DNA of 64,000 bases from NCBI GenBank assembly GCA_016649715.1, contig JAENXC010000014.1, positions 33,813 through 97,812 on the forward strand, written 5' to 3'. Shown piece by piece: positions 3,988-62,604 of the stretch; the first letter of the stretch is position 1, and every line of letters starts with the position of its first letter. The position numbers were made by a program, and so were the translations under genes. This stretch comes from Flavobacteriaceae bacterium (GTDB taxonomy: Bacteria > Bacteroidota > Bacteroidia > Flavobacteriales > Flavobacteriaceae). Below the pieces are notes generated by a model. The model was not told the origin of the DNA, made no database searches, and was given only the letters and a program-made list of their open reading frames with translations.

Positions 3988-4803
3988 TTATCTTATGAAA
4001 TTGGTAACTCCAAACTTTTTCGCCTCAGCTCTTGCTTCGGGCGCCCAAGCTCGTAAATTTTGAATTCGAGTGGTACTGGAAGGGTGAGTGCTCAAAAATT
4101 CTGGCGGTGCGCCTTGCTCCTGTGCCTGCATGCGCTGCCAAAGTTCTGCTGCAACACTGGGATCGTAACCCGCAATAGCCATTAAAATCAATCCAATGTG
4201 GTCTGCCTCGGTCTCGTGGCTTCTGCTAAAAGGGAGCATTACGCCAAGATTGGAGCCCAATCCATAAGCTGCATTAAAAATTTGTGCATTTTTAGAATTG
4301 GCCGTTGCAACTCCCACGCCTACTGCGCCAAGTTGTTGAAGCTGATCTGCACTCATTCGCTGTTGGCCATGATTTGCCAAAGCGTGTGCAACCTCGTGGC
4401 CCATAACGGCGGCGAGACCTGCTTCATCTTTTGTGATTGGCAAAATACCAGTGTACACCACTATTTTTCCTCCAGGCATACACCAAGCGTTTACTTCCTT
4501 GCTGTCCACCAAGTGATATTCCCATTTGTAATCTGATAAATAGCCTGCATAGCCATTTGCATCTAAATAGCGTTTTGAGGCTGCGGCTATTTTTTGCCCC
4601 ACATTGGTTACCATTCTTGCATCGGCAGTGTTGGACACCACTTTGTTTTCAGACAAAAACTGACTGTATTGCTGAAATGCCATGGGCAAAATCTGTGAAT
4701 TGGGTACCAAGGCAAGGGTTTGTTTACCAGTAAATGGATTGGTGCTACAGGCAACAACAATTGCCCCCAATAACAATATTAAAAAGGATTTTTTGAGTTT
4801 CAT
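3988..4803 (-). CDS. M48 family zinc metallopeptidase lipoprotein
   Basis: Lipobox VVAC; NAWCMPGG, HEVAH (HEXXH), FSRSHETEAD and FLSTHP motifs. Confidence 0.92.
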   Translation of the reverse strand: MKLKKSFLILLLGAIVVACSTNPFTGKQTLALVPNSQILPMAFQQYSQFLSENKVVSNTADARMVTNVGQKIAAASKRYLDANGYAGYLSDYKWEYHLVDSKEVNAWCMPGGKIVVYTGILPITKDEAGLAAVMGHEVAHALANHGQQRMSADQLQQLGAVGVGVATANSKNAQIFNAAYGLGSNLGVMLPFSRSHETEADHIGLILMAIAGYDPSVAAELWQRMQAQEQGAPPEFLSTHPSSTTRIQNLRAWAPEARAEAKKFGVTNFIR

Positions 4804-4972
4804 ATTAAGATGGTTTTATTGGAGTTTTAAAATTAGAGATATAAATTTTAGGAAACTATTAAAGTTATTCTAAAGTTTTTTTTAAAAATTGTTCCAAAAA
4901 AAAATCAAACTTTAATGTTTCCTTAATACATAGGATTGTTGGAAGCTACTAAATTTATAGACTTTAAAAAGT

Positions 4973-4987
4973 TGGAACGACTTTTGT
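4973..4987 (+). promoter_or_regulatory. Sigma54-like -24/-12 motif upstream of the lipoprotein-msrB-msrB run
   Basis: TGGAACGACTTTTGT with correct GG/G spacing, 35 nt before the ATG at 5023. Confidence 0.4.
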
Positions 4988-5022
4988 AAACTTCACCTTA
5001 AAATCATTTAAAATATTTAATT

Positions 5023-5535
5023 ATGAAAAACATACTTCTTTTTTTGGCGTTTTCAACAACAATACTTTTCACTTCCTGTCAAGGCGATCCAGGTCCTCCG
5101 GGACAGGATGGCGTCTCTTTCTTGGGAAAGGTTTTTGAAACTACTGTAAATTTCAATAGCGGAAATAATTTCGAAAACTTAATTACTTTCCCTTCAAACG
5201 TTGAAGTTTATGAAAGCGACGTTGTTCTTGTTTATCATTTGGTTGAGACAATTCCTGGTAATGGCGGTTCAATTGACGTATGGGAACAATTGCCACAGAC
5301 CTATTTCCCTCCACAGGGAACCCTATTGTATAGTTTTGACCATACTTTTTTGGATGTAAAAATATTTTTGGATGCCAATTTTGACCTTAATACATTGGGA
5401 AGCGAATTTACAAATAACCAGACTTTCCGAATAGCCGTTGTTCCCGCAGAATTCGCAAAGACAAATCCTTCAATGAAACAAGTGCTTGAAATGATGCAAA
5501 TGGACGGTTCGCAAATTGAAAAGATAGAACTTTAA
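5023..5535 (+). CDS. Hypothetical lipoprotein with a short collagen-like GXY stretch
   Basis: Lipobox FTSC followed by GDPGPPGQDG; no catalytic motif recognised. Confidence 0.75.
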   Translation: MKNILLFLAFSTTILFTSCQGDPGPPGQDGVSFLGKVFETTVNFNSGNNFENLITFPSNVEVYESDVVLVYHLVETIPGNGGSIDVWEQLPQTYFPPQGTLLYSFDHTFLDVKIFLDANFDLNTLGSEFTNNQTFRIAVVPAEFAKTNPSMKQVLEMMQMDGSQIEKIEL

Positions 5536-5539
5536 TGCA

Positions 5540-6025
5540 ATGAAGGTTTTTAGTGCAATTATTGTTTTGAGTGCTTTGTTTTTCAGTTGCAATTCTCCCG
5601 CACAGAAAAACAAAGCAACAAAGCAAGAAACCTTTAAAATAACTAAAACTGATGCGGAATGGAAAGCACAATTATCTGCTTCTGCATATAATGTGCTCAG
5701 AAAGGAAGGAACGGAACGCGCTTTCACCAGTGAATTGAACGACAATCATAAAGCAGGTAAATTCGTCTGCGCTGGCTGCGGGACCCCTGTTTTTGAAAGC
5801 ATACACAAGTTTGATAGCGGCACGGGTTGGCCAAGTTTTGAAAGGGAAATTAAAGGCAATGTTACTTTTTCCACCGATAGAAAATTGGGATACACCCGCA
5901 CCGAGGAACATTGCGCCATTTGCGGCGGACATTTGGGCCACGTTTTTAACGATGGTCCCGAAACCACTGGAAAACGACATTGCATAAATGGTGTGGCACT
6001 AAAATTTATACCTGAATATGAATAA
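5540..6025 (+). CDS. msrB: Peptide-methionine (R)-S-oxide reductase, exported lipoprotein form
   Basis: Lipobox FFSC; CAGC and CAIC zinc pairs; KFDSGTGWPSF; GHLGHVFNDGP; RHCING. Confidence 0.93.
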   Translation: MKVFSAIIVLSALFFSCNSPAQKNKATKQETFKITKTDAEWKAQLSASAYNVLRKEGTERAFTSELNDNHKAGKFVCAGCGTPVFESIHKFDSGTGWPSFEREIKGNVTFSTDRKLGYTRTEEHCAICGGHLGHVFNDGPETTGKRHCINGVALKFIPEYE

Positions 6026-6419
6026 ACCAAATGAATATCCAATAAACAAATCGGAAGCCGAATGGCGCGAGGAATTGGGCGAAAAACGTTACCATATTCT
6101 TCGTGAAAAAGGCACCGAATTTCCCCGAACAGGGGAATACAATCTTACTTTTGAAGAGGGAACCTACGTCTGCGGCGCCTGCCACACCCCGCTTTTTAAA
6201 AGCGACAACAAATTTGAAAGCAGTTGTGGTTGGCCTTCTTTTGACGACTCTATTGAAGGCGCCGTGGAATATGTAAAAGACATATCGCACGGAATGATGC
6301 GAACAGAAATCCTCTGCTCCAACTGTGGCAGCCACTTGGGACACGTTTTTGAAGATGGATCCACTGAAACTGGGCAGCGGTATTGTATAAATTCACTTTC
6401 GTTGGATTTTAAGAAATAA
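6018..6419 (+). CDS. msrB: Peptide-methionine (R)-S-oxide reductase, cytoplasmic form
   Basis: No signal peptide; CGAC and CSNC pairs; KFESSCGWPSF; HLGHVF; RYCINS. Confidence 0.93.
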   Translation: MNKPNEYPINKSEAEWREELGEKRYHILREKGTEFPRTGEYNLTFEEGTYVCGACHTPLFKSDNKFESSCGWPSFDDSIEGAVEYVKDISHGMMRTEILCSNCGSHLGHVFEDGSTETGQRYCINSLSLDFKK

Positions 6420-6592
6420 ATCCCAAAATTCAAGCATTAAATCCCAAACCCGCCTGCCGGACGGGCAGGTAAATCCCAAATCTTAAAAACCAAATTCCAA
6501 TGAGCAATTCTTTGGAATTTGGTTTTTTTTGTTTTTTGAATTTTTACTTTTGAGATTTATTTGGAATTTGGAGTTTGTTATTTGGAATTTTT
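6420..6592. repeat. Inverted array of AAATCCC/AAATTCC-type short repeats carrying a 21-bp palindromic cassette at 6449-6469
   Basis: Left arm has AATCCCAAA/AAATTCCAA units and right arm has TTGGAATTT units; cassette is CCCGCCTGCCGGACGGGCAGG. Confidence 0.7.
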
Positions 6593-13472: not shown

Positions 13473-13635
13473 GCCTACATCAATATATTTATTTTGAATA
13501 AACTCCTTAAAATGAATGTTTAGGGCTAACAAGCTGGTCAAGTATCCGCTCTAAGACGGCGCGCTTTTACAACTTCAACTCACCCTTTTTAAAGAATTCC
13601 TGTTGAGTTTACCAAAAATGAATATTAATGTAGGC
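13473..13635 (-). ncRNA. ssrS: 6S RNA (Flavobacterial type) between zapA and rny
   Basis: Ends pair (GCCTACATCAATAT at 13473 with AATATTAATGTAGGC at 13621-13635), forming a long rod followed by a U-tract on the minus strand. Position downstream of zapA is the known 6S synteny. Confidence 0.72.
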
Positions 13636-20773: not shown

Positions 20774-20870
20774 TCGCCATAAATTTCAGTTCGCAAAAAT
20801 ACGTATTAAAACAGTTTTGACTGCTTTTGGGTTAAAAAGAAATGCGTTACTTTGTAAGTGTGAAAAAATA

Positions 20871-21047
20871 GCCACGAATTCACGAATTGAAAATGTTTAT
20901 GTGGGCGTGATGGAGCCACGAATTCACGAATAAAAAAGTATAATCATTCGTGAATTCGTGGCAAAACTTCCACAACAACCCAAAAACATTAGTGAATTCG
21001 TGGCAAAAAACATCCACAACAACCAAAAACATTCGTGAATTCGTGGC
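20871..21047. repeat. Cluster of five 17-bp GCCACGAATTCACGAAT REP-like units (two forward, three reverse)
   Basis: Units at 20871, 20915 (forward) and 20946, 20988, 21031 (reverse); the last three lie in 42-43-bp tandem repeats. Confidence 0.9.
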
Positions 21048-21061
21048 AAAACCTTAAAAAT

Positions 21062-34060: not shown

Positions 34061-34342
34061 CACCGAAGCTTTAGCGAAGGGGCATCACTCGAACTCCGAA
34101 GCTCTTTGTGCATCGTAGCTTTAGCGTAGTTGCATAGCGAAGGGGTTCAAATAGTTAAAAATAAACCACATTGGATTGAAGTGCAATATATTTTTAAAAC
34201 AGACTGAAAGCCTGCCTTGCCGGCAGGCAGGTCTGTTAAATTCGTAAAAATAAAAACACTACCAGCTGTGGAAATATTTTCAACAGAAGAATAGATTAGT
34301 GATAACCTGCCTGCCGACAGGCAGGTTCGTGCTATTCGTGGC
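34061..34342. repeat. Repeat-filled fumC leader
   Basis: GAAGCTTTAGCGAAG-type palindromes at 34061-34144; CCTGC..GCAGG cassettes at 34211-34231 and 34306-34325; TTCGTG..ATTCGTGGC unit at 34326-34342. Confidence 0.75.
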
Positions 34343-35827: not shown

Positions 35828-35873
35828 ACCACGAATTCACGAATACTTATATAAGTATTCGTGAATTCGTGGT
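35828..35873. repeat. Perfect 46-bp palindrome of two GCCACGAATTCACGAAT-family units
   Basis: ACCACGAATTCACGAATACTTAT followed by ATAAGTATTCGTGAATTCGTGGT, between convergent fumC and ccsA. Confidence 0.92.
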
Positions 35874-41479: not shown

Positions 41480-41545
41480 GCCACGAATTCACGAATAAAA
41501 TATATTTTGATTCGTGTACCTGTCCGCCGGAGGAGGATTCGTGGC
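41480..41545. repeat. REP pair whose right arm is split by a cassette
   Basis: GCCACGAATTCACGAAT...ATTCGTGTA[CCTGTCCGCCGGAGGAGGA]TTCGTGGC. Confidence 0.8.
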
Positions 41546-45486: not shown

Positions 45487-48018
45487 ATGCAAAGAACATC
45501 TTTTTCACGACTTCTATTTTTATTTTTCGCAATAGCAGCTACCGCTCAAACCCCTAAAAAACTTACCACTTCCGAAATATATCACGATCTCCAAAAACTT
45601 AATTTTGTGGGTTCTGCACTCTATATTGCGGCTCATCCCGATGATGAAAATACACGCCTGATTTCCTATTTGGTAAATGACGTGCAAGCAAACACTGCCT
45701 ATCTTTCCATCACCCGTGGCGATGGCGGACAAAATTTGGTTGGCCCCGAATTGCGTGAACTGCTCGGAGTTATCCGCACGCAGGAGCTTTTGGCAGCGCG
45801 AAGAACCGATGGCGCCCAACAATTTTTTACACGTGCCAATGATTTTGGCTACAGCAAAAACCCCGATGAAACTTTTGAGTTTTGGAACCGAAACGATGTT
45901 TTGAGCGATGTTGTGCAGACCATCCGAAAATTCAAACCGGATATTGTAATAAACCGTTTTGACCATCGCAGCCCAGGTAGCACCCATGGCCACCACACGG
46001 CTTCGGCAATGTTGAGCGTAGAGGCTTTTGATTTGGTTGACAATCCTTCAAAATTTCCAAGATCTGCGGAAACTTATGGCGTTTGGAAACCGCAGCGACT
46101 GTTTTTCAATACTTCGTGGTGGTTCTACGGAAGCAAGGAAAAGTTTGATAAAGCCGATAAATCGAAACTCGTTTCGGTGGAAACCGGAAACTTTTTTCCT
46201 TCCCTCGGACTTTCCAATGGCGAAATCGCATCGCTCAGCCGAAGTATGCACAAATCGCAGGGGTTTGGAAGCACGGGCTCGCGCGGGGCGGAAACCGAAT
46301 ATTTGGAATTATTGGAAGGCTCAAAACCTTCCGACAATAATTTATTCGAAGGAATAAACACCAATTGGTCGCGACTTGAGGGGGGAAAGGAAATTGGTGC
46401 TATCTTAAATCCCTTGGAAGAAAATTTCAACTTTAAAAATCCTTCAGAAATGCTTCCGCAGTTGTTGAAAGTGTATCCAATGGTTTCAAATTTGAAAGAT
46501 GCGCATTGGCGAAACATAAAACTGGAACAACTGAAACAGCTCATTTTGGATTGCGGCGGAATCTTCATTGAAGCCGCTTCCGAAGAAAATTCGGTAAACC
46601 CGAACGAAAATTTCAAAGTAAATATTGAAGCCATCAACCGTGGAAAAGAAGCTATTGTTCTAAAATCGGTTAAAAATTCCGAAGCCGTGCCTGCCGGCTT
46701 GCCCGCCGGGGAGGGCAGGCAGGGTAAAATTCTTTGGAATGAATCCGCAACACTTCCCTTTAATGAAGATAAAAAACTGGAAATAACAGTTAATTCGGGA
46801 ACTCACGATCCAAAATATTCTTCGCCTTATTGGCTGAACGATAAAGGAACCGTCGGAATGTACGTTGCCCCCGAAGCGTTGATTGGTCTGCCTGAAACCC
46901 CGCCGCTGGAGCAATTGGTTTTCGAGCTTCAATTTGGAAACACAACAATTCCATTTACAAAAAACATAATTTATAAATTCAACGATCCCGTGAAAGGGGA
47001 AGTCTATCGCCCGTTGGAAGTATTGCCCGAAGTCACCGCTTCCATCCCTGAAAAGGTCTTGATTTTCGCCAGCAACGCCCCTGAAAATGTTTCTGTAATC
47101 GTTCGTGCTGGGAAAGACAATATTTCTGGAAATGTGAGCTTGCAGCATCCCGAGGGTTGGAAAGTTGAGCCTGCACAGCAATCATTTCAGCTAAACAGAA
47201 ATGGCGAATCAAAGACATTCAGTTTCAAAGTAACCCCGCCGAACAGTCAAAGTGAGGGCTATTTAAAACCATTGGTAAATGTGGAGGGCCAAACTTTTGA
47301 TAAGGAATTGATAACTATCAATTACGAACACATTCCGTATCAAAGCGTGTTGTTACCCTCGGAAGCGAAAGTTGCGAAGATTGATATTCAGAAAAAAGGT
47401 CAAAACATAGGCTACATCAACGGTGCGGGCGATGCCATTCCTGAAAGTTTGATACAGATTGGCTATTCCGTAAGCACGATCGACCCTTTGACTATTTCAG
47501 AAAAAAACCTTCAGAATTTTGATGCAATCGTTGTCGGAATTCGTGCGTATAACACCGTTCCCGAATTGGCTTTTGTGCAACCAATTTTGAATAAATACGT
47601 TGAAAACGGCGGAACGATGATAGTTCAATACAACACCAGCCAGGCTTTGGTTACTGAAAATCTCGCCCCTTATTCACTAAAACTCTCGCACGACCGAGTA
47701 ACCGATGAGTTTTCGGAGGTAAAAATGCTCGCCCCGGAAAATCCATTATTGAACACGCCCAATAAAATAACCCAAAAAGATTTTGAAGGCTGGGTACAAG
47801 AACGCGGACTCTATTTTCCGAACGAGTGGGCGAAGGAATTCACGCCAATCCTCGGAATGCACGACAAAAGCGAAGCCCAAACAAAAGGTTCGTTGCTCGT
47901 ATCTAAATACGGAAAAGGGTATTATATTTATACAGGCTTGAGCTTTTTCCGCGAACTTCCCGCTGGCGTTCCCGGAGCTTATAGATTGTTTGCGAATATG
48001 CTTTCTGTGGGGAAATAA
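45487..48018 (+). CDS. Exported PIG-L/LmbE family deacetylase with Ig-like (NEW3-like) and C-terminal GATase-like domains
   Basis: Signal peptide; AHPDDEN, TRGDGGQN, DFGYSK and HGHH; -7 element TATCTTTG at 45448-55; contains a 13-aa palindromic insert. Confidence 0.9.
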   Translation: MQRTSFSRLLFLFFAIAATAQTPKKLTTSEIYHDLQKLNFVGSALYIAAHPDDENTRLISYLVNDVQANTAYLSITRGDGGQNLVGPELRELLGVIRTQELLAARRTDGAQQFFTRANDFGYSKNPDETFEFWNRNDVLSDVVQTIRKFKPDIVINRFDHRSPGSTHGHHTASAMLSVEAFDLVDNPSKFPRSAETYGVWKPQRLFFNTSWWFYGSKEKFDKADKSKLVSVETGNFFPSLGLSNGEIASLSRSMHKSQGFGSTGSRGAETEYLELLEGSKPSDNNLFEGINTNWSRLEGGKEIGAILNPLEENFNFKNPSEMLPQLLKVYPMVSNLKDAHWRNIKLEQLKQLILDCGGIFIEAASEENSVNPNENFKVNIEAINRGKEAIVLKSVKNSEAVPAGLPAGEGRQGKILWNESATLPFNEDKKLEITVNSGTHDPKYSSPYWLNDKGTVGMYVAPEALIGLPETPPLEQLVFELQFGNTTIPFTKNIIYKFNDPVKGEVYRPLEVLPEVTASIPEKVLIFASNAPENVSVIVRAGKDNISGNVSLQHPEGWKVEPAQQSFQLNRNGESKTFSFKVTPPNSQSEGYLKPLVNVEGQTFDKELITINYEHIPYQSVLLPSEAKVAKIDIQKKGQNIGYINGAGDAIPESLIQIGYSVSTIDPLTISEKNLQNFDAIVVGIRAYNTVPELAFVQPILNKYVENGGTMIVQYNTSQALVTENLAPYSLKLSHDRVTDEFSEVKMLAPENPLLNTPNKITQKDFEGWVQERGLYFPNEWAKEFTPILGMHDKSEAQTKGSLLVSKYGKGYYIYTGLSFFRELPAGVPGAYRLFANMLSVGK
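46684..46722. repeat. 39-bp nested palindromic cassette inserted in frame in the PIG-L gene
   Basis: GCCGTGCCTGCCGGCTTGCCCGCCGGGGAGGGCAGGCAG encodes AVPAGLPAGEGRQ; very GC-rich within AT-rich flanks. Confidence 0.8.
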
Positions 48019-48069
48019 GTTGTTAAAAGGAAGGGATTTTCGTATTTTTAAAAATTAAATATAAGGATT

Positions 48070-48291
48070 ATGGAAACATTGAGCGTCAAAATTTTAAATC
48101 CGGAAGCAAAAAGGCTTTTAAAGGAAATGGTCGATAAGGATTTGATTGAAATTGAGGATTCTAAAAAGGAATTCTTAGAACTTCTGAATCGATTGCAAAG
48201 TAATTCCAAAAACGCTCCTACACTCGAAGAAATCACGAAGGAAGTGGAAATAGTGAGAAAAGCGAGATATGAGCAAGAAAATAATCGTTGA
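48070..48291 (+). CDS. Putative antitoxin (73 aa)
   Basis: Overlaps the PIN gene by 23 nt; C-terminal PTLEEITKEVEIVRKARY helix; typical type II antitoxin size. Confidence 0.65.
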   Translation: METLSVKILNPEAKRLLKEMVDKDLIEIEDSKKEFLELLNRLQSNSKNAPTLEEITKEVEIVRKARYEQENNR

Positions 48292-48682
48292 TACCAACTT
48301 ATGGATAAGTTTTTTAATAACCAAAAAGTATCAAACTTTTAAAAAGCCTATCATTTCCAATAATATAACCATACTTTTTTCTTCCCAATCCATAACGGAA
48401 TTTTGGGATGTTTCTCGTAGACCACATTTCGAAAAATTATTTCCATTAGAAGAGGTAAATATTTTGTTTGCGGTTTTTAAAGTATTCGGTATCCAAATAA
48501 AACCAACTTCTAATTTAAAAATTTGCCGTGACGAAAAAGACAACTTTCTTCTTAATTTAGCCATTGACGGCAAAGCCGATTATTTAATTACTGGAGACAA
48601 AGATTTACTGATACTCAAAAAAGTTGGGAATACTAAAATTCTTACCTATTCAGAATTTACTGGAGAAATGAACCAAAAATAA
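48269..48682 (+). CDS. PIN-domain putative toxin (PIN_3/TIGR00305-like)
   Basis: IIVDTNLWIS, CRDEKDNFLLNLA and YLITGDKDLL acidic PIN motifs. Confidence 0.88.
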   Translation: MSKKIIVDTNLWISFLITKKYQTFKKPIISNNITILFSSQSITEFWDVSRRPHFEKLFPLEEVNILFAVFKVFGIQIKPTSNLKICRDEKDNFLLNLAIDGKADYLITGDKDLLILKKVGNTKILTYSEFTGEMNQK

Positions 48683-48796
48683 ATGATGGACAACCAATCC
48701 CAAAAATTCACCTGGAAATGGAGCTACACCATAGTTCTCCTGCTCAATGCTGCTTATATCTATCTGTTTTATTTACTAATGCAAAACTTCACATAA
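48683..48796 (+). CDS. 37-aa single-TM protein translationally coupled to the sodium symporter; missed by the ORF track
   Basis: MMDNQSQKFTWKWSYTIVLLLNAAYIYLFYLLMQNFT; its TAA (48794-96) directly abuts the symporter ATG at 48797. Confidence 0.75.
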   Translation: MMDNQSQKFTWKWSYTIVLLLNAAYIYLFYLLMQNFT

Positions 48797-50497: not shown

Positions 50498-50591
50498 ATA
50501 GCTTGTCAGTTCGAGCGCAGTCGAGAACCGTCAACAGGTCTCAACTTTAGTTTATCCCGAGTTCAGTTAAAAAAACACGACCATAAGTATA

Positions 50592-50629
50592 ATTCGTGAA
50601 CCTGCCCGTCCGGCAGGCGGGTTCGTTGC
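50592..50629. repeat. REP unit split at GAA|TTC by a 21-bp cassette
   Basis: ATTCGTGAA[CCTGCCCGTCCGGCAGGCGGG]TTCGTTGC; the cassette is the exact reverse complement of 6449-6469. Confidence 0.85.
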
Positions 50630-51861: not shown

Positions 51862-51897
51862 GCCACGAACCTGCCTGCCGGCAGGCAGGTTCGTGGC
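51862..51897. repeat. Perfect 36-bp palindrome of REP half-arms around a cassette
   Basis: GCCACGAA[CCTGCCTGCCGGCAGGCAGG]TTCGTGGC in the leader of the RsmB-family gene, after a -7 element TACCTTTG (51814-21). Confidence 0.88.
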
Positions 51898-53314: not shown

Positions 53315-56236
53315 TTATTCAACAATAATCCTTCCCGTTTTGAAAGCCTTGGTTTCTTTTCCACCCACTCTCACAATATAAACGCCGCTTGCCACTTCAC
53401 TCATATCGAGTCTCGCTTTAAATGAATCGCCCATTTTGTTCAGCATTTTCACTTTAAGTTGTTGGCCCAACATATTGTAAACGGCTAAATAAGCGGTGCC
53501 ATCAAATGCTGTTGTCAGTGTTACTTCGAATTGTTTGTTGCCTTCGGTTGTAATAATTAAACTACCATTTCTGATGGAAAAATCATTTACACCGAGGGTG
53601 CCTATATTTGCTGTGTAGTCTTCTGTTTCACCGAAACTGGTTTCTTCACAAGCATCTGCTGGAACAGGTCCGTTCCAGTTGGTTTTGGCACGCATACGGT
53701 GTGGGCCTATTGCAGCTCCTGCCGGAACCACCAAATCCATAGTTACGGTATAAATTCCTGAGCCTTGTCCAGAAGCAATTTCTACGTTATTGACTACTAC
53801 TTCATTTGCAGTAAAAGTAGAATCGTCGTTATAATCTATCCAAACTTTAACAAACTGATCGCCGTAATTAGTGGTTACTGTAAGATCGTTCGTACTGCCA
53901 GGTGCTAAATTTGCTATTAGGTTCGTAAAATCACCATAGCCTTCACAACCGGATGAATTGTTGATTTCCGCAACGGAAAAAAGACGGAAACCATCTCCAT
54001 AAGAGCAATCGCTTGTAGGTTGGCAAAGTACATGTTCGATTACCTCCGTTACTGCATCATTGGCCGCATTGGAATCTCCTGTCAAAGAAGTTGAAACAGT
54101 AACATTATAGGTTCCCAATACAGAAAAATCTGCCTTTTGGGTGAAACTATAATTCATTTCTTGCTCTGAGCCTATTGGACCTGCAAAGGTTTCAACTACG
54201 GGCGTGCCACCATTAATTACATATTGTACGTTAAAATTTGATTGCGTAGTAGCCCCGAAGTTTTTAATTTTTGCGGTAATGGTTTCATTATTACCTAAGC
54301 CAGGTCCAGAAATTGGTGCGGTAATATCAGTTGCTCCCACATCATTCGCTATAAGATTCGTTATATCTTTCGTGTATGGATCGTTTGCGGGGAACTCATC
54401 CCCAGCTAAATTTGTTCTTACTTCAATGGAATAGGTTTGACCAGAAGTAGATAAATCTACAGTTTGTGTAAATGTGTAAGTTGCAGTTGTTCCAGCTGCA
54501 ATTGTACCAGCAAATGTTTCAGAAGCCATTAAATTACCATCCACCCTAAGTTGCAAAGGAATGTTGCTCTGTGGCGCTGTACCAAAGTTTCTTATGCTTA
54601 CCTCCACGGTTTCGGCATTTGTCAAAATTCCATTTACGGGTTGTATAAGCGCGTTTATACCAACATCTTTTGCAAATCCGCCCGAAAGTGTGAAAGCCGC
54701 AATCTGGGTTCTCCAGTTGTTGTTTGAGGAAAAATATTCAGCAGCAAACCAAAACGTAAAATTATCGGGATCCATTGTTAAATGTGTGTAATCCCCAAAC
54801 CGATTGGTATAAGTTTGCACTCCAGCCCCGGGAATTATTTCGGTTTCTGCAACGGTCATTTGTCCCAAAGGGTCACCGTTTAATCTTCCCGTATATCTTA
54901 TTGATGCTTTAAGTGTGCTACTGGCAACGTTAAACGCCAAACCAATATTTCCAGCGGCATCCATGCCTGCGCTACCCATAAAACGGCTGTGTCCGTCAGC
55001 TGGTGCATAGGTTCCTTCTTGATATATAGACCACGGGTTGGAAGCGTCATTTCGCAATTCAATCCAGTGAATACCTGAAGTGTCGTTATTGTCAACATCT
55101 GTGTTGAACGTAATCACCCAACTGTTATGGCCCGCAAAACTGCGGTAGTTGGCGGCATAGGAAATTACGCCTCCAATCATATCAATTTTTTGACTGGTTC
55201 CAGGTTGTTGTACATCACCAGTTCCAAATGGTGCAAACACCGAGTTAAAAGGATCTGTAGGTATCTCTAAAGGTGCTGAAATGGTAGAATTTCCCGTATT
55301 TGTCCAGTCTAAATTTATTTCCCAAACTTTCAAATGGTCAAAACTCACTCCGGACCAACCGTCATCCTGAAGATAGGTTACATAGCCAGGAACATTTGCT
55401 GGAAAGTTGGTTCCTAAAAGATTTGCAGGTTCTGGGCTCAAAACGGTGTTTGTGTTTTGTGTGCTTCCGGGAAGTGGAAATCCAACAATTTTAGGGCTTG
55501 CACCACCTGCAAGCATTACATCTCTTTCCACTGCATATACTTTATTGGCAGTCCCAATATTTGCAGTTAAATAATATGCATCATGCCAAACACTGTAATG
55601 GGGATAATCAGGAAAACTCCCGAAAGTGTATTGATATACATTATAAGCTCCCGTTGGGTCGTTGGTAACTGAAACACCAATTGCCAATGAATTGTTCCCC
55701 GAACCAAATTCACTCACAAACCAACGGTCTGCAAGTTGGTCGTACATTATAATTGGATCTCCTGAATTTGAACCAATTCCCAAGAAAGTCCCCAAAGCAA
55801 CGGGGCCAACAAGCAAAGTTCCTGTTTTACTGAAAATTTTCACAATGGAGTTTACCGAATGTACATAATGATTTGGACCTGCTGCCCCTGTTGGATCTGG
55901 TGGAACATATCCAGATTCCGATGAGGAAGCACCGATAAAGTTCTGTTCAATGACGCGGGTTTGAATTTTTCCAAAATCTCTTTGTACGTTTTGGTCAATG
56001 CCGATGGGCAACGCGTTTGCATTTACCTGCGGATTGTAGCGTGATCTATTGGTGACCACCTTGATTTCTTTAGTACTCTGATCGTATTCTTCTTCTTGAA
56101 TCGCAAAATCACGTAAAGGAATGGTTTTTCCAATAAAGGTTCCAACAATAACCTCATCTGGCGGAAAGCTTTGTTGGGCGAAAACGCCAATCCCAAAAAG
56201 CAGAGAGGCTGCAAATAGTAGTTTTTTAAGTTTCAT
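53315..56236 (-). CDS. T9SS cargo protein, paralogue A: uncharacterised head, two CARDB/Ig-like domains, GEVED domain, CTD
   Basis: Start MKLKKLL at 56236; PPDPTGAAGPNHYV head; two NDVG-initiated Ig repeats; KVWIDYN...HRMR...GETEDY (GEVED); YNMLGQ...SGVYIV CTD. Confidence 0.88.
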   Translation of the reverse strand: MKLKKLLFAASLLFGIGVFAQQSFPPDEVIVGTFIGKTIPLRDFAIQEEEYDQSTKEIKVVTNRSRYNPQVNANALPIGIDQNVQRDFGKIQTRVIEQNFIGASSSESGYVPPDPTGAAGPNHYVHSVNSIVKIFSKTGTLLVGPVALGTFLGIGSNSGDPIIMYDQLADRWFVSEFGSGNNSLAIGVSVTNDPTGAYNVYQYTFGSFPDYPHYSVWHDAYYLTANIGTANKVYAVERDVMLAGGASPKIVGFPLPGSTQNTNTVLSPEPANLLGTNFPANVPGYVTYLQDDGWSGVSFDHLKVWEINLDWTNTGNSTISAPLEIPTDPFNSVFAPFGTGDVQQPGTSQKIDMIGGVISYAANYRSFAGHNSWVITFNTDVDNNDTSGIHWIELRNDASNPWSIYQEGTYAPADGHSRFMGSAGMDAAGNIGLAFNVASSTLKASIRYTGRLNGDPLGQMTVAETEIIPGAGVQTYTNRFGDYTHLTMDPDNFTFWFAAEYFSSNNNWRTQIAAFTLSGGFAKDVGINALIQPVNGILTNAETVEVSIRNFGTAPQSNIPLQLRVDGNLMASETFAGTIAAGTTATYTFTQTVDLSTSGQTYSIEVRTNLAGDEFPANDPYTKDITNLIANDVGATDITAPISGPGLGNNETITAKIKNFGATTQSNFNVQYVINGGTPVVETFAGPIGSEQEMNYSFTQKADFSVLGTYNVTVSTSLTGDSNAANDAVTEVIEHVLCQPTSDCSYGDGFRLFSVAEINNSSGCEGYGDFTNLIANLAPGSTNDLTVTTNYGDQFVKVWIDYNDDSTFTANEVVVNNVEIASGQGSGIYTVTMDLVVPAGAAIGPHRMRAKTNWNGPVPADACEETSFGETEDYTANIGTLGVNDFSIRNGSLIITTEGNKQFEVTLTTAFDGTAYLAVYNMLGQQLKVKMLNKMGDSFKARLDMSEVASGVYIVRVGGKETKAFKTGRIIVE

Positions 56237-56412
56237 GGTTTGTTTTTTAAATTTAAGGAGACGAAAGATACTCATATATTTTAAATCATTTAAACTGTTA
56301 TCCAATATTTTAAATTCAAATAAGTATTTTTAATACCGTTCAATCCCTTTAACATAAAAAAGCCGCCCCAAATTGATTTTGGGACGGCTTCTTGTTAAGA
56401 ATTATAAAAAAA

Positions 56413-59331
56413 TTATTTCACTATCAATCTTGCAGTTTTAACAGCCTTTGTGTCCTGCCCTCCGGCTTTAATAATGTAAACGCCGCTTGCCGCAAAAGAC
56501 ATGTCTAATGATAAATGATAGGCACCATCCACTTTTCCGATGGGTTTGATGCCCAATTCCTGACCGAGCATATTATAAACAGAAATATAACCCATACCTT
56601 CATAATCTGAAACCAAGGATATTTCAAAGTGTTTGTTGTCTGTACTGGTTATTAACAATTCGCCATTCCTGATAGACATATCATCAATTCCCAAGGTACC
56701 AATGTTGGCGGTGTAATCTTCTGTTTCGCCAAATTGTGTTACCTCGCAGGCATCTGCTGGAACGGGTCCGTTCCAATTGGTTTTGCCTCGCATACGATGT
56801 GGCCCAATTGCGGCTCCTGCTGGAACCACCAAATCCATAGTTACGGTATAGGTTCCTGAGCCTTGGCCAGAGGCAATTTCTACGTTATCAACCACTACTT
56901 CATTTGCGGTAAAGGTAGAATTATCGTTATAATCTATCCAAACTTTCACGAATTGGTCGCCGTAATTTGTAGTAACAGTAAGCTGGTTGGTACTATCCGG
57001 TGCTAAATTGGCAATTAGATTCGTAAAATCACCGTATCCTTCGCAACCGGAAGGATTGTTTATTTCTGCAACGGCAAATAGTCGGAATCCATCCCCATAG
57101 GAACAGTCCATAACTGGTTGGCAAAGTACATTTTCTATCAGTTCGGTAACTGAATCATTAGACGCATTTGCATCACCCGCCAAGGAAGTTGAAACGGTAA
57201 CGCTATAGATTCCCAAAGCAGAAAAATCTGCCTTTTGGGTAAAACTATAGGCCATTTCTGCTTCTGGAGCAATGGGTCCTACTATGGTTTCAACAACGGG
57301 GGTTCCGCCGTCAATAACATATTGCACGCTAAAATTGGATTGTGGAGCAGCTCCAAAGTTTTTGATAGTTGCAGTAATGGTTTCATTATTCCCCAAGCCA
57401 GGTCCCGAAACAGGGGCAGTTATTGCAATGGCACCCACATCATTGGACAAAAGATTTGTAACTTGTTTATTGTAGGGATCATTTGCAAGAAATTCATCAC
57501 CCGCTAAATTGGTTTTTACTTCAATATCATACGTTTGTCCAGATGTTGATAAATCTACGGTCTGTGTAAAAGTGTAGTTTGAAGCAGCTCCCGCAGCTAT
57601 AGTTCCTGCAAAAGTTTCCGAGGCTTTTAAAATTCCATCAACGCGCAGTTCCAAAGGAATTCCCGATTGTGGATCAGTTCCGAAATTACGGATGCTTACT
57701 TCAACCGTTTCAGCGTTGGTCAAAAGACCGTTGCTGGGTTGAATTATGTTGTTTATACCCACATCCTTGGCAAAACCGCCCGAAATTCTATACGAAGCTA
57801 TCTGTGTTCTCCAAGCATTGTTTGACGAGAAGAAATCTGCTGTGTGCCAAAATGTAAAATTGTCAGGATCCATAGTGGTATGGCCGTAATCCCCATATCT
57901 ATAGGTGTTGTTGCGCACCCCTACTCCGTTGACAATCGTGGTTTCCGCTACGGTCATGGTTCCCAATGGGTCACCGTCAAAACGCCCCGTATAACGAACA
58001 CCTACGGGCAAGGTGGAACTTCCAATACTGTAGGCAAGCCCAATATTTCCTGCGGCATCCATTGCGGAACTGCTCATAAATCGGCTGTGCCCATCTGCAG
58101 GTGCATAAGTACCTTCTTGATAGATCGTCCAAGGGTTGGAACTGTCGTTTCTTAATTCTATCCATCGAATACCGCCAGTGTCGTTGGCATCAATAAAAGT
58201 ATTGAAGGTTATAAGCCAAGAATTGTGATCTGCAAAACTTCTATAGTTTGCTCCAAAAGAAATAATACCGCCGTGTCCAGCTAGTTTTTGATTGGTTCCG
58301 GGTTGTTCCACTGCTCCTTGTCCGAATATTTCACCTGCGTCAAAAGGATCAGTCGGTACTACAAGTGGAGCGGAAATAGTAGAGTTTGCAGGGGTTGTCC
58401 AATCCATATGCATTTCCCAAATCTTTAAATGGTCACTTGAAACCCCACTCCAAGCATCATCCTGCAAATAGGTGACATATCCAGGAGTGTTGGGCGGAAT
58501 GACAGTTCCCAAAAGATTGGCAGCTTCGGGGCTCTTTACTTGGTTTGGGTTCACCACAATTCCAGGCAGTGTGAATATTACAATTGCAGGACTGGGTCCT
58601 CCATTGAGTATTTCGTCGCGATCCAAGGCAAATGCGCGGGTAGTTTGTCCGTCTAGGTTCACGGTGCCGTAATAAGCATCTGGCCATACGGCATAATGTG
58701 GATAATCCGGAAAACCGTTAAAAGCGTATTGGTACACATTATAGGCTCCAGTTGGATCGCTGGTGGCTGACACTCCTATTGCTAAGGAATTTCCGCCGCT
58801 GATATTTCCAAATTCACTAACAAGCCATCGGTCTGCCAATTGGTCGTACATCACAATGGGGTCGCCACTGTTGCCGCCAAAACCGAGAAAGGTTCCCAGT
58901 GAAACTGGCCCGACCAATAAAGTTCCTGTTTTAGAAAAAATCTTTACCAGTGAATTTACGGAGTGAACGTAATGGTTTGGTCCAACTGCCCCTGTGGGAT
59001 CTGGAGGATAATACCCAGATTCTGAAGAGGAGGCTCCAATAAAGTTTTGCTCTATGGGCCTTGTTGCAATCTGTCCGAGTGTTTTTTGCAGATTGTCGAT
59101 GACGGTCGGTGGAACCTCGTTGATTTCAATTTGTGTGGTAGATTCGTTTGGTACTACCCTCATCGTTTTGGGGTCTAAATTAAGGTTTTCCGGCATGGTT
59201 GGAAAATCGCGTAAAGGCATCGTCTGTCCAACAAACGTACCTACTATAATCTGCTCTGGCGGAAATTGCTGCTGCGCGAAAATCCCCAAGCTAAAAAATA
59301 AAGCTAATGTTACTAGTAATTTGTTTTGCAT
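56413..59331 (-). CDS. T9SS cargo protein, paralogue B (mosaic of A and C)
   Basis: Same architecture; head and CTD match paralogue C, while the Ig-GEVED stalk matches paralogue A. Confidence 0.9.
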   Translation of the reverse strand: MQNKLLVTLALFFSLGIFAQQQFPPEQIIVGTFVGQTMPLRDFPTMPENLNLDPKTMRVVPNESTTQIEINEVPPTVIDNLQKTLGQIATRPIEQNFIGASSSESGYYPPDPTGAVGPNHYVHSVNSLVKIFSKTGTLLVGPVSLGTFLGFGGNSGDPIVMYDQLADRWLVSEFGNISGGNSLAIGVSATSDPTGAYNVYQYAFNGFPDYPHYAVWPDAYYGTVNLDGQTTRAFALDRDEILNGGPSPAIVIFTLPGIVVNPNQVKSPEAANLLGTVIPPNTPGYVTYLQDDAWSGVSSDHLKIWEMHMDWTTPANSTISAPLVVPTDPFDAGEIFGQGAVEQPGTNQKLAGHGGIISFGANYRSFADHNSWLITFNTFIDANDTGGIRWIELRNDSSNPWTIYQEGTYAPADGHSRFMSSSAMDAAGNIGLAYSIGSSTLPVGVRYTGRFDGDPLGTMTVAETTIVNGVGVRNNTYRYGDYGHTTMDPDNFTFWHTADFFSSNNAWRTQIASYRISGGFAKDVGINNIIQPSNGLLTNAETVEVSIRNFGTDPQSGIPLELRVDGILKASETFAGTIAAGAASNYTFTQTVDLSTSGQTYDIEVKTNLAGDEFLANDPYNKQVTNLLSNDVGAIAITAPVSGPGLGNNETITATIKNFGAAPQSNFSVQYVIDGGTPVVETIVGPIAPEAEMAYSFTQKADFSALGIYSVTVSTSLAGDANASNDSVTELIENVLCQPVMDCSYGDGFRLFAVAEINNPSGCEGYGDFTNLIANLAPDSTNQLTVTTNYGDQFVKVWIDYNDNSTFTANEVVVDNVEIASGQGSGTYTVTMDLVVPAGAAIGPHRMRGKTNWNGPVPADACEVTQFGETEDYTANIGTLGIDDMSIRNGELLITSTDNKHFEISLVSDYEGMGYISVYNMLGQELGIKPIGKVDGAYHLSLDMSFAASGVYIIKAGGQDTKAVKTARLIVK

Positions 59332-59445
59332 TTTGGTTTGATTTTAATTATAAAAGCGAAAGGTAATAATATATTTTAAATCATTTTAAATGTGATTCAA
59401 TATTTTGAATACACAGTAGTATTTTCAAAATCGTTTAATCCATTA

Positions 59446-59617
59446 GGTACTGTTGTAGAATAATGTGGGATTTTGATTTCAACCCATTTTTACCCTGACC
59501 CTAAAGGGAAATAGGTTGAAATCATCATTTCATCCTTTAGGAATGAGGTAAAAAAATGATGATTTCAGATTTCATTTTATATATTGATAAATTCCCATAT
59601 TATTCTACAACACTACC
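59446..59617. mobile_element. 172-bp MITE with 25-bp terminal inverted repeats and an 8-bp target-site duplication
   Basis: Left TIR GGTACTGTTGTAGAATAATGTGGGA versus reverse complement of right TIR GGTAGTGTTGTAGAATAATATGGGA (23/25 match); ATCCATTA at 59438-45 and 59618-25; absent from the paralogous spacer 56306-56412. Confidence 0.88.
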
Positions 59618-59685
59618 ATCCATTACAAAAAAAAACCGCCCCAAATTGATTTTGGGACGGCTTCTTGTTATGGATAGCGAAAGGA

Positions 59686-62604
59686 TTATTTCACTATCAA
59701 TCTTGCAGTTTTAATGACCTTAGTGTCTTGCCCTCCGGCCTTAATAATGTAAACGCCGCTTGCCGCAAATGACATATCCAGCGTTAAATGATATGCGCCA
59801 TCCACTTTTCCGATGGGTTTGATGCCCAATTCCTGACCCAATACATTAAAGACTGAAATATAGCCCATTCCGTCATAATCTGAAACCAAGGATATTTCAA
59901 AGTGTTTGTTGTCTGTACTTGTTATCACCAATTCCCCATTTCTGATAGACATATCGTCAATTCCCAAGGTACCGATGTTGGCGGTATAATCTTCTGTTTC
60001 GCCAAAAGGAGTTGTTTGACAAGCATCTTGTGGCACAGTGCCATTCCAATTTGTTTTGGCTCGCATGCGGTGTTCCCCAGCTGTGGCGTTTGAAGGAACT
60101 ACTAAGTCTAAAATGGAAGTGTAAGTTCCGGCACCTTGACCTGGATAAAGTTGAACACTTTCCAATACAACTTCATCTGTTGTAAAAACAGAATCGTCGT
60201 TAAAATCTATCCAAACTTTTAGGTATTGACCTCCGTAATTTGTGCCGAAAGTTAATTGATTGGTGCTGCCAGGCTCTAAATTTGCAATCAAGTTTGTAAA
60301 ATCACCATAGCCTTCACAACCCGAAACATTATTTATTTCTGCAACTGCAAATAATCTAATCCCATGACCAAGACTACAATTCATAGCCGGTTCACAAATA
60401 GTATTTTCAATTTCTCTTGTAACAGCATTGTTGGCTGGTTTTGCATCTCCAGACAAAGAAGTTGAAACCGTAACATTGTAAACTTTCATAATAGACAAGT
60501 CCGCAGTTTGTGCAAAGGAAAAGTTCACCTCTTCTTCGGAAGCAATAGTTCCCGTAAATGTTTCAACAACTGGTGTTCCTCCGTCAATAACATATTGTAC
60601 ATTAAAATTTGATTGTGGTGAAGCTCCAAAGTTTCTAATTGTTGCTGTAATAGTTTCGCTATTTCCCAATCCTGGACCGGTAACTGGCGATGTAATTTCA
60701 GTTGCCCCCACATCATTTGCAAGAAGATGGGTAACTACTTTGCTTATTGGATCATTCGCCGGAAATTCATCTCCAGACAAACGTGTTCTTGCTTCAATAA
60801 CATAGCTTTGTCCTGGTGTTGACAAATTTACGGTCTGTGTAAAAGTATAGGTTGAAACAGCACCCGGAGCTATAGTTCCTGCAAATGTTTCCGAAGCCAC
60901 CAAATTGCCATCAACACGCAATTCCAAAGGAATATTTGATTTTGCAGCTAATCCGTAATTTCTAACTCTAACTTCAACGGTCTCAGCATTCGTCAAGATG
61001 CCATTTTCAGGTTGAACAATTGTACTCACCCCTAAATCTGAAGTAAATCCACCAAAAATTCTATAAGAAGCTATTTGGGTTCTCCAAGCATTATTAGATG
61101 AAAAGAAATCTGCCGTGTGCCAAAAAGTGAGGTCGTTAGGATCCATAGTTGTATGTCCGTAGTCACCGTATCTATAGGTGCTAGTTCGCACTCCTACTCC
61201 ATTTTTAATAGTAGTTTCAGCTACAGTCATAGTTCCCAAAGGATCTCCGTTATAGCGACCTGTATATCGAATTCCAACTGGCAAAGTAGAACTTCCAATA
61301 CTATAGGCAAGCCCAATATTTCCATAAATATCCATTGCGGAACTGCTCATAAATCGGCTGTGACCGTCCGCAGGCGCATAAGTACCTTCTTGATAGACCG
61401 TCCAAGGGTTGGTGCTATCGTTTCTCAATTCAATCCATCTTATTCCGCCTGTTTCATTCGCGTCAATAAAAGTATTGAAAGTTATAAGCCAAGAGTTGTG
61501 ATCTGCAAAACTTCTATAATTTGCAGCAAATGAAATTATCCCTCCATGCCCAGCGAGCTTCTGATTGGTTCCGGGTTGCTTTATTGCTCCTTGTCCAAAT
61601 ATTTCACCTGCATCAAAAGGATCAGTCGGAACTATAAGTGGAGCGGAAATAGTAGAGTTTGCTGGTGTTGTCCAATCCATATCAATTTCCCAAATCTTTA
61701 AATGGTCACTTGAAACCCCGTTCCAAGCATCATCCTGCAAATAGGTAATATATCCCGGTGTGTTCGGTGCAATGGTAGTTCCCAAAAGATTGGCTGCCTC
61801 GGGACTCTTTACTTGGTTAGGATTCACTATAATCCCGGGAAGTGAAAATATTACTATCGCAGGATTAGGACCCCCATTTAGTAATACATCGCGATCCATC
61901 GCAAATGCACGGGTTGTAGCACCCCCTAAATTTACTGTTCCATAATAGGCGTCTGGCCATACAGCGTAATGTGGATAGTCCGGAAAACCGCTAAATGCAA
62001 ATTGGTACACATTATAGGCACCTGTTGGATCGCTGGTAGCCGATACACCAATTGCTAAAGAGTTTCCGCCATTAATATTTCCAAATTCACTTACAATCCA
62101 TCGGTCTGCCAATCGGTCGTACAACACAATGGGGTCGCCACTGTTGCCGCCAAAACCGAGAAAGGTCCCCAGTGAAACTGGCCCTACCAATAAAGTTCCA
62201 GTTTTAGAAAAAATCTTTACCAATGAATTTACCGAGTGAAGGTAATGGTTTGGGCCAACCGCTCCCGTTGGATCCGGTGGATAATATCCAGACTCTGAAG
62301 AAGAGGCTCCAATAAAGTTCTGTTCAATTGACCTTGTAGCAATTTGGCCAAATGTTGTTTGAAGATTGTCAATGACCGTTGGTGGAACCTCATTGATCTC
62401 AATTTGTGTGGTAGATTCGTTTGGCACTACCGTCAATTTTTTTGGATCTAAATTAAGATTGTCTGGCATAGTTGGAAAATCGCGTAAAGGCATCGTCTGC
62501 CTAACAAGCGTTCCTACTATTATTTGCTCTGGCGGAAATTTCTGCTGTGCAAAAATCCCCAAGCTTGAAAATAAAGCTAATGTTAAAAGTAATCTGTTTC
62601 GCAT
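59686..62604 (-). CDS. T9SS cargo protein, paralogue C
   Basis: Same architecture as A and B; 972 aa. Confidence 0.9.
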   Translation of the reverse strand: MRNRLLLTLALFSSLGIFAQQKFPPEQIIVGTLVRQTMPLRDFPTMPDNLNLDPKKLTVVPNESTTQIEINEVPPTVIDNLQTTFGQIATRSIEQNFIGASSSESGYYPPDPTGAVGPNHYLHSVNSLVKIFSKTGTLLVGPVSLGTFLGFGGNSGDPIVLYDRLADRWIVSEFGNINGGNSLAIGVSATSDPTGAYNVYQFAFSGFPDYPHYAVWPDAYYGTVNLGGATTRAFAMDRDVLLNGGPNPAIVIFSLPGIIVNPNQVKSPEAANLLGTTIAPNTPGYITYLQDDAWNGVSSDHLKIWEIDMDWTTPANSTISAPLIVPTDPFDAGEIFGQGAIKQPGTNQKLAGHGGIISFAANYRSFADHNSWLITFNTFIDANETGGIRWIELRNDSTNPWTVYQEGTYAPADGHSRFMSSSAMDIYGNIGLAYSIGSSTLPVGIRYTGRYNGDPLGTMTVAETTIKNGVGVRTSTYRYGDYGHTTMDPNDLTFWHTADFFSSNNAWRTQIASYRIFGGFTSDLGVSTIVQPENGILTNAETVEVRVRNYGLAAKSNIPLELRVDGNLVASETFAGTIAPGAVSTYTFTQTVNLSTPGQSYVIEARTRLSGDEFPANDPISKVVTHLLANDVGATEITSPVTGPGLGNSETITATIRNFGASPQSNFNVQYVIDGGTPVVETFTGTIASEEEVNFSFAQTADLSIMKVYNVTVSTSLSGDAKPANNAVTREIENTICEPAMNCSLGHGIRLFAVAEINNVSGCEGYGDFTNLIANLEPGSTNQLTFGTNYGGQYLKVWIDFNDDSVFTTDEVVLESVQLYPGQGAGTYTSILDLVVPSNATAGEHRMRAKTNWNGTVPQDACQTTPFGETEDYTANIGTLGIDDMSIRNGELVITSTDNKHFEISLVSDYDGMGYISVFNVLGQELGIKPIGKVDGAYHLTLDMSFAASGVYIIKAGGQDTKVIKTARLIVK

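Follow-up and report, generated by a model that had tools for sequence, protein, structure and literature searches.

An in-frame 39-nt repeat in an Aequorivita deacetylase gene, a derivative of an apparently undescribed 21-nt hairpin element found in three phyla

Rickettsia palindromic elements (RPEs), said to have been described by Ogata and co-workers in 2000, are palindromic repeats dispersed in the genome and found in frame in intact, translated genes, where they usually form surface-exposed segments. Classic RPE-1 measures roughly 100-150 bp and is confined to Rickettsia. Repetitive extragenic palindromes (REPs) are mostly intergenic, with some units lying in open reading frames (ORFs) and encoding extra residues, so that in-frame intragenic copies are known for both REPs and RPEs; REPs of the CGTC type, present in the Bacteroidetes/Chlorobi group, have no dedicated transposase (Di Nocera et al., 2013, PMC3733652). 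Here, we analyze a 39-nt insertion in a PIG-L/LmbE-family deacetylase gene, located in a 64-kb stretch of DNA (the window, i.e., the whole stretch analyzed) from an Aequorivita species (Flavobacteriaceae) whose genes share about 86-87% protein identity with those of A. soesokkakensis and A. sublithincola, gene order being conserved. These 39 nt are very probably a copy of a dispersed, GC-rich, hairpin-forming selfish mini-repeat of the REP/RPE kind that was inserted into coding sequence. Cross-genome comparisons indicate that the insert, a composite of 21 outer and 18 inner nt, derives from an apparently undescribed 21-nt base element common to three phyla (Bacteroidota, Patescibacteria and Bacillota). 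The gene and the parts of the insert are as follows.

45487..48018, plus strand: host gene, PIG-L/LmbE-family deacetylase of 843 aa with beta-sandwich middle domains; ORF intact and collinear with 830-aa orthologues.
46677..46683, plus strand: TTCCGAA, pre-existing host sequence directly 5' of the insert; TTCNGAA also stands 5' of the other two composite copies.
46684..46722, plus strand: 39-nt insertion encoding the peptide AVPAGLPAGEGRQ (13 aa); equally placeable at 46685-46723.
46684..46695, plus strand: left half of the 21-nt base element, GCCGTGCCTGCC, made of the tag GCCGTG and the arm CCTGCC; same as the left half of 30 uninterrupted copies.
46696..46713, plus strand: GGCTTGCCCGCCGGGGAG, the inner 18 nt, which occupy the dyad centre of the base element; position ambiguous by at most 2 nt; inverted in a second genomic copy.
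46714..46722, plus strand: right half of the base element, GGCAGGCAG, made of the arm GGCAGG and the tail CAG, as delimited by comparison with uninterrupted copies.

The insert, whose sequence is GCCGTGCCTGCCGGCTTGCCCGCCGGGGAGGGCAGGCAG, places its 13 residues between ...KNSE and GKILWNE, in a protein whose N-terminal PIG-L domain (PF02585) spans residues 45-180. The initial annotation, made from the sequence alone, had proposed that these residues were an in-frame insertion and that the ORF survived because the length is a multiple of three, and both points are confirmed. Indeed, in a MAFFT protein alignment covering 80 Flavobacteriaceae species, a 13-residue gap falls exactly at the insert site in 80/80 orthologues; in the one from A. 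soesokkakensis (86% identity), the flanks SE and GKILWN are identical and directly joined, and the host reading frame picks up at the very next codon after the insert. In a search of 5.8 billion proteins, the best 120 matches lack the segment and measure 829-831 aa in nearly every case; the six longer ones that were aligned (834-839 aa) lack it as well. At the DNA level, comparison with uninserted orthologues gives junctions of the form TCCGAA-insert-GG(T/A)AAAATT, ambiguous by 1 nt (G), and reveals no target-site duplication; the uninserted orthologues already possess TTCCGAA or TTCAGAA at the site, and this heptamer (TTCNGAA) is a candidate target or stretch of microhomology.

Since the longer homologues vary by natural indels of 3-7 aa two to six residues upstream of the insert site, the latter lies within an indel-tolerant stretch. 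A site in an indel-prone loop is what one might expect if the segment had a local origin, either by slippage or duplication in place or as an ancestral segment lost in the other lineages. Such an origin is hardly credible, given that near-identical copies exist with unrelated flanks, that the outer 21 nt match exactly at 30 loci elsewhere and that the segment is lacking in all 80 orthologous loci. The insert is also the longest GC-rich island of the window (36-44% GC) and is stop-free in all six frames. Its arms CCTGCC and GGCAGG pair, and in 71 nt of context it folds with -16.9 kcal/mol (z -2.0). The idea that the host site was a pre-existing hairpin whose loop served as target was dropped, as the uninserted orthologue L001 folds no better than shuffles (z -0.3).

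The origin of the outer part of the insert is indicated by other genomes. A scan of JGI metagenomes with the GAA-anchored pattern GAAGCCGTNCCTGCC-N(0-30)-GGCAGGCAGG gave 30 loci, every one with zero spacer, i.e., the exact 25-nt string GAA GCCGTGCCTGCC GGCAGGCAG G; the parse of the insert as a cassette within a cassette, already proposed in the initial annotation, is hence borne out by an outer cassette that exists free of the inner 18 nt. The base unit, GCCGTGCCTGCC joined to GGCAGGCAG (21 nt), amounts to the widespread palindrome CCTGCCTGCCGGCAGGCAGG (20 nt) with a G added. Long sense-strand ORFs contain it in 15 distinct genes, where it reads E-AVPAGRQ in frame; among the hosts are Mn/Fe superoxide dismutase (SOD), FtsH, MetRS, MiaA, RecF and ribosomal protein S17, as well as an Hsp20-like protein and 4Fe-4S proteins. 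Aligned with solved structures, SOD and FtsH show exact 7-residue gaps preceded by a residue that is Glu in the solved homologue too, and MetRS shows a 6-residue gap at the site, where the homologue has Asp-Asp and the query Glu. The SOD with insert comes from a metagenome-assembled genome (MAG) of Candidatus Chisholmbacteria (Patescibacteria) and occurs on 14 contigs from several sources.

Filled and empty alleles can be compared directly for a 623-aa protein with the insert (P0138), whose cluster mates (P0139-P0142, 94-97% identity) lack exactly those seven residues: the DNA reads GAAGAA(21 nt)GGTTTT in the former and GAAGAA/GGTTTT in the latter, again with no duplication. GAA^GG is the insertion point at three independent empty sites. 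In homologues that are 86-87% identical, the peptide reads EAVPTGRQ or EGLPAGRQ, which suggests that older copies have drifted along with their hosts. The GAA-anchored pattern had 0 matches in a viral scan. Antisense ORFs over the AVPAGRQ element were set aside as spurious or as cases in which the element lies upstream of the real start, and inverted 70-nt repeats around two palindromes in L101 enclose no recognisable transposase. On a 454-kb contig that has two AVPAGRQ insertions (L123, L145), a Cys-rich, 4Fe-4S-like ORF of 372 aa includes in frame a 24-nt form, GCCTGCCTGCCGGCAGGCAGGGCA, encoding ACLPAGRA (L123, around 3064).

With these data, the parallel with RPEs drawn in the initial annotation holds as a process, the same element being in frame in many other proteins. 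As in RPEs, a palindromic repeat is present in multiple copies in the same genome (at least three composite copies in the source metagenome) and has been inserted in frame with the ORF intact (39 nt, 13 aa). The two nevertheless have no sequence relation: the element described here measures 21 nt (39 nt in the deacetylase) instead of about 100-150 bp, is GC-rich in an AT-rich genome, is found in Aequorivita rather than Rickettsia and has the same sequence in three phyla. REPs are imperfect palindromes of 20-40 nt with a short 5' tag and a 3' tail, and a stem-loop of this type is found here, with a stem of 6-10 bp and a loop of 0-4 nt; however, the tag is CGTG or CGTA, and while REP families are normally lineage-specific, this element is identical across phyla. 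Regarding location, REPs are mainly extragenic; of the present element, six of the seven copies in the window are intergenic and many copies in other hosts are intragenic. No gene for RAYT, the Y1 HUH transposase, is found among the genes of the window. The searchable literature contains no relevant paper for the peptide string PAGRQ or the DNA string CCTGCCGGCAGG, the element sequence is absent from the supplements of PMC3733652, Rfam has no family for it and a simple terminator scan gave nothing specific.

The composite itself is not unique to the deacetylase gene. This gene was found at about 100% identity in four permafrost-metagenome runs (X1-X4), and as both gene-to-insert junctions are on independent Logan contigs of all four, the insert is not an assembly artefact of the window. 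In 4/4 runs, contigs end or begin inside the insert, so that the gene is split in each; a search of the assembly index for the exact window protein found no record. A mis-join induced by the repeat or a stray oligonucleotide could be suspected on the grounds that de Bruijn graphs branch at the insert repeat and that any stop-free 21- or 39-mer would appear "in frame". Such an artefact is nonetheless exceedingly improbable: besides the junctions in four separate runs and the gene resuming at once after the insert, related inserts occupy fixed sites in independent assemblies (as in the SOD found on 14 contigs) and have drifted with their hosts.

In run X2, a 43-nt unitig (46681-46723) has a depth of about 2.4 times that of its flanks, and two further contexts were recovered. 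At locus A/C, the 43 nt are exactly identical between other flanks (...GGATTC TTCnGAA (39 nt) G AAATAATC...). Locus B has 32 nt in common with one mismatch, its other strand reading TTCTGAA GCCGTA CCTGCC (inner 18 nt inverted) GGCAGG CAGG; the tag variant GCCGTA also occurs in a base unit (L129). The orientation of the inner 18 nt thus differs between copies when the asymmetric outer parts are taken as reference, which further supports the nested parse. Contigs with the other copies have depths similar to those of the deacetylase contigs. Run X1 gave 20-23 for the latter and 35-39 for contigs with the other two copies, X2-X4 being nearly equal (window 46300-47100), which may reflect strain heterogeneity at the locus in one sample.

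The source metagenome hence contains at least three composite copies, each with TTCNGAA directly 5'; the composite is repeated and is not a local event. As it circulates as a unit, the nesting of 18 nt within 21 nt did not take place in the deacetylase gene. The composite so far appears private to this lineage, its 26-nt core having 0 matches in the metagenome scan. No uninserted allele was seen among the contigs of the four runs, which can hide rare variants, and a chimeric query made from the translated flanks of the other two copies had no protein match at E up to 10, these runs being evidently outside that protein collection.

Relatives of the element are also present elsewhere in the window, where the arm motif CCTGCCGGCAGGCAG has 13 matches at up to 3 mismatches against 0.57 expected. 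Besides the insert, six GC-rich palindromic cassettes were identified, all intergenic: five are of the type CCTGCCTGCCGGCAGGCAGG (at 6449, 34211, 34306, 50601 and 51870) and one, at 41519, is a weaker relative.

50601..50621, plus strand: 21-nt family member CCTGCCCGTCCGGCAGGCGGG, intergenic, between ATTCGTGAA and TTCGTTGC.
6449..6469, minus strand: second intergenic copy of the 21-nt variant CCTGCCCGTCCGGCAGGCGGG, in reverse orientation.
51862..51897, no strand assigned: perfect 36-nt hairpin GCCACGAA-CCTGCCTGCCGGCAGGCAGG-TTCGTGGC, -21.8 kcal/mol, z -8.9.
34211..34231, no strand assigned: intergenic family member CCTGCCTTGCCGGCAGGCAGG, within a hairpin CAGAC...GTCTG.
34306..34325, no strand assigned: intergenic family member CCTGCCTGCCGACAGGCAGG.
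41519..41536, no strand assigned: intergenic GC-rich cassette CCTGTCCGCCGGAGGAGG, within a CACGAAT/ATTCGTG hairpin; relation to the insert weak.

The initial annotation had likened the inner part of the insert to the 41519 cassette, a resemblance that proves to be at chance level (11/18, p about 0.18); the variant at 50601 and 6449 is closer (13/18, p about 0.02). Whereas the corresponding 8.5-kb neighbourhoods from 80 other Flavobacteriaceae, 664 kb in total, yield a single match to the family motif, the 64-kb window has 6, so that the family has expanded in this Aequorivita lineage. Several of the window palindromes are centred within another repeat, (GCC)ACGAA...TTCGTGGC, of which TTCGTGGC occurs 11 times in the window against 1.9 expected; the canonical 20-nt palindrome (51870-51889) is for instance nested in a CACGAA/TTCGTG repeat.

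Other short repeats accompany them. A second family consists of intergenic heptamer-based hairpins, GCCACGAATTCACGAAT ... ATTCGTGAATTCGTGGC(AAAA), at 20870-21050, 35830-35873 and 41480-41545, in which GC palindromes are often nested after GAA, and a similar ...TTCGTGGCAAAAAAA element is found in Subsaximicrobium (L030, around 5580). The motif GTTCGAGCGCAGTCGAGAAC, at 50509-50528 downstream of the symporter gene, is found in the opposite orientation in a related MAG, at the orthologous intergenic site (L002, around 7270), and is probably yet another short interspersed repeat. Finally, two adjacent, slightly overlapping SelR/MsrB genes (5540..6025 and 6018..6419) are followed by AAATCCCAAA direct repeats flanking the palindrome at 6449.

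The 21-nt variant CCTGCCCGTCCGGCAGGCGGG present at 50601 and 6449, hereafter the sister 21-mer, has itself entered genes. It encodes PARPAGG in frame in an S1 protease (L116) whose nearest named homologues are from Candidatus Collierbacteria (Patescibacteria); these residues are lacking in a homologue of 93% identity and in every more distant one, and the junction reads GTTATG(21 nt)CCAAGC against GTTATG/CCAAAT. In a Collierbacteria-like homologue (P0154; L149, around 1495-1520), another insert of 8 residues, PAGTATPT, lies exactly at this site, possibly as an earlier, independent event at a hotspot. One Bacillota MAG (IMG 2820306284) has prophage-like contigs in which 68 kb contain 26 exact copies of the sister 21-mer with complete flanks, including copies within genes for tail sheath, tape measure, head protease and minor head proteins, with up to four in one tape-measure gene. 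They occur in both orientations and in all six reading frames with no frame bias, and their flanks have A at -1 in 15/26 cases and a pyrimidine at +1 in 26/26. Over the 14 kb of one stretch (L169), 10 matches occur, including four within a single tape-measure gene (2991-6167, minus strand), and neighbouring stretches (L155-L161, L168) are likewise saturated. As for the 20-nt palindrome, 35 viral-contig stretches contain it, with GC contents of 38-68%; long ORFs over it on the high-GC ones look spurious (Arg/Pro-rich) and were not counted as coding. On one viral contig of 64% GC (L105, 2239-2330), CCTGCCTGCCGGCAGGCAGG forms the long variable arm of a tRNA-Met gene, and tRNA-like flanks surround it in L082 and L112, with no ARAGORN call.

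Where the 13 residues lie in the deacetylase was addressed with an AlphaFold2 model of the 843-aa protein (mean predicted local distance difference test score, pLDDT, 77.7). Downstream of the catalytic domain, the model has an all-beta domain in which residues 400-412 form a low-confidence loop flanked by strands 390-397 and 415-417, with pLDDT below 50 for residues 401-411 and of 36 for residues 401-410; the segment is thus predicted to be a disordered surface loop, in agreement with the loop location anticipated by the initial annotation. In a Foldseek search with the whole model, transglutaminases lead and PIG-L-type deacetylases are among the matches; transglutaminases have beta-sandwich and beta-barrel domains.

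An intact ORF and a surface position are what would be expected if the residues had been kept for a new property of the enzyme, such as a linker, a protease site or a binding loop, and all 15 in-gene simple copies read AVPAGRQ, on the sense strand in frame 0, as against only 38-41% of coding-DNA GAAGG sites so placed, although this set is anchored on GAA by the search pattern. Such an adaptive role is very unlikely, however, as the segment is present in one lineage only among about 200 orthologues, is predicted to be disordered, belongs to an element whose host proteins are functionally unrelated and has a sister variant found in all six frames. Since the set is GAA-anchored and the sister variant is free of bias, the AVPAGRQ frame bias would mainly be due to purifying selection against the Cys-/Arg-rich alternative frames and not to a frame-aware mechanism. 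The "protein innovation" read into the insert by the initial annotation hence finds no support, as nothing points to a functional innovation. We regard the insert as a selfish or neutral passenger and not as an adaptation.

From these elements, a scenario can be proposed. The insertion would have occurred after this Aequorivita lineage split from its sequenced relatives. A further 18 nt would have come to lie at the dyad centre of the base unit, the resulting 39-nt composite spreading as one unit and inserting precisely 3' of GAA (here TTCCGAA^GG) with no target-site duplication. The copy would persist by virtue of a length that is a multiple of three, of being stop-free in six frames and of its position in an indel-tolerant beta-sandwich loop far from the catalytic PIG-L domain, the insert being simply translated as a flexible 13-residue loop.

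How such a unit might be mobilized can be approached by comparison with other small elements. Miniature inverted-repeat transposable elements (about 70-300 bp) have terminal inverted repeats and a fixed target duplication, while here the length is 21-39 nt and duplication is nil beyond an ambiguity of 1-3 nt. The GC clusters of yeast mitochondria (e.g., GC42) are short GC-rich hairpins in AT-rich DNA with presence/absence polymorphism, whose units undergo "merger and shuffling" into composites (Wu and Hao, 2015, PMC4478555), much like the 21+18 nt composite. These clusters are mitochondrial, though, and have an AG (or TAG) target duplication; the present element resides in bacteria and prophages, and an AG or other fixed-length duplication does not agree with the filled and empty sequences. 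A functional parallel exists with IS200/IS605 elements, with their miniature derivatives (palindrome-associated transposable elements, PATEs) and with REP/RAYT systems, which are hairpin-dependent and inserted 3' of a short motif without duplication; this resemblance concerns only how they work. As in IS200/IS605, the target varies by variant, being GAA^ for the AVPAGRQ unit and (G)TTA^ with a pyrimidine at +1 for the sister 21-mer. Known IS200/IS605-type elements have separate left and right subterminal hairpins and measure at least about 100 nt, in contrast to the single hairpin in 21 nt found here.

Across the sites compared, the ends of the element are defined and identical at many independent places, and its flank preferences are short and variant-specific. 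If the element is mobile, it is conceivable, by analogy with the above systems, that it moves as a single-stranded hairpin, in trans, through a sequence-specific nuclease/ligase of the HUH kind (RAYT or IS200/IS605-like), a reading that we tentatively favour. The defined ends, the flanks specific to each variant and the missing duplication would all follow from such handling.

The main rival is copying without any dedicated enzyme, in which a nascent strand would switch via 1-8 nt of microhomology (TTCCGAAG ... G) to another palindrome copy and back, leaving a templated 39-nt patch. The junction overlaps of just 1-3 nt without fixed-length duplication would suit such template switching, as would the TTCNGAA that precedes all three composite copies, the host site being already TTCCGAA. 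Inversions such as that of the inner 18 nt are, in addition, generated by template switching in hairpins. In chloroplast non-coding DNA, small hairpin-loop inversions leave the segment between short inverted arms in both orientations. This is what is seen for the inner 18 nt in the deacetylase copy and at locus B, except that chloroplast loops flip in place and are not part of a dispersed repeat. Template switching thus accounts for the flip but not for the identical ends, the end points being the same in 15 independent genes and in three phyla. Moreover, the flanks of the simple 21-mer have only GAA and G in common, too little homology for repeated identical events, and flank preferences vary by variant. 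We consider this explanation unlikely.

The reading of the insert as a copy of a mobile mini-repeat has its own weak points. Folded on their own, the 39 nt do no better than shuffles (z -0.7), so that of the "palindromic insertion" of the initial annotation the insertion stands and the palindrome is only partial. Neither a transposase nor an HUH protein was found among the window genes, and among 100 small ORFs from related loci, a crude screen for HUH/Tyr motifs hit only SOD, a false positive. With 21-39 nt, the element is far smaller than anything for which movement by a Y1 transposase has been demonstrated, its tag is not the GTAG/CGTC of the described REP superfamilies, and the junction overlaps would fit microhomology-mediated copying equally well. 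The other two composite copies are known from 30-nt flanks only, their genic location and presence in the same genome being deduced from open frames and similar contig depth, and movement itself is something we infer from the sequences compared.

Several other features of the window deserve mention. Between the deacetylase and sodium:solute symporter genes, a segment of about 670 bp (48028-48701) that is absent from the Aequorivita relatives compared contains a small ORF (about 48069-48272, METLSVKILNPEAKRLL...) followed by a PIN-domain gene (48269..48682, PF13470), and looks like an inserted toxin-antitoxin module. A 6S-Flavo RNA (RF01685, 97 bits) lies at 13500-13608 on the minus strand, just downstream of the RNase Y gene. 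On the same strand, CARDB and GEVED domains are found in three tandem paralogues (about 970-1000 aa each) at 53315-62604; the first of them scores just under the Pfam cut-off (26.7 vs 27 bits) for a type IX secretion sorting tail.

The addition of peptides by in-frame palindromic repeats was already known from RPEs and intragenic REPs, but the known families are longer and bound to a lineage. What is new is the presence of an identical 21-nt unit in housekeeping genes of candidate phyla and in a Flavobacteriaceae deacetylase, together with a sister 21-mer in prophage genes of Bacillota. It is rather doubtful, though worth considering, that the insert belongs to an undescribed cross-phylum class of ultra-small (20-21 nt), site-specific and "coding-proof" mobile hairpins, which a broad-host-range, strand-specific and possibly phage-borne enzyme would have spread among Bacteroidota, Patescibacteria and Bacillota. 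If true, such hairpins, coding-proof through a length divisible by three and the lack of stops in all six frames, would be able to settle in conserved housekeeping genes and structural genes of prophages as well as in tRNA variable arms and other repeats, and would represent the smallest autonomous-looking unit of DNA mobility known. From a practical standpoint, these repeats break short-read assemblies, and the lineage-specific indels they leave can mislead alignments and annotation. Alleles with and without the element at 94-97% protein identity offer a tractable system to address the minimum size of a mobile element, the enzyme that moves it, its passage between phyla and the share of micro-insertions in the loop-length variation of proteins. 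The 21-base unit may be among the smallest mobile DNA elements seen.

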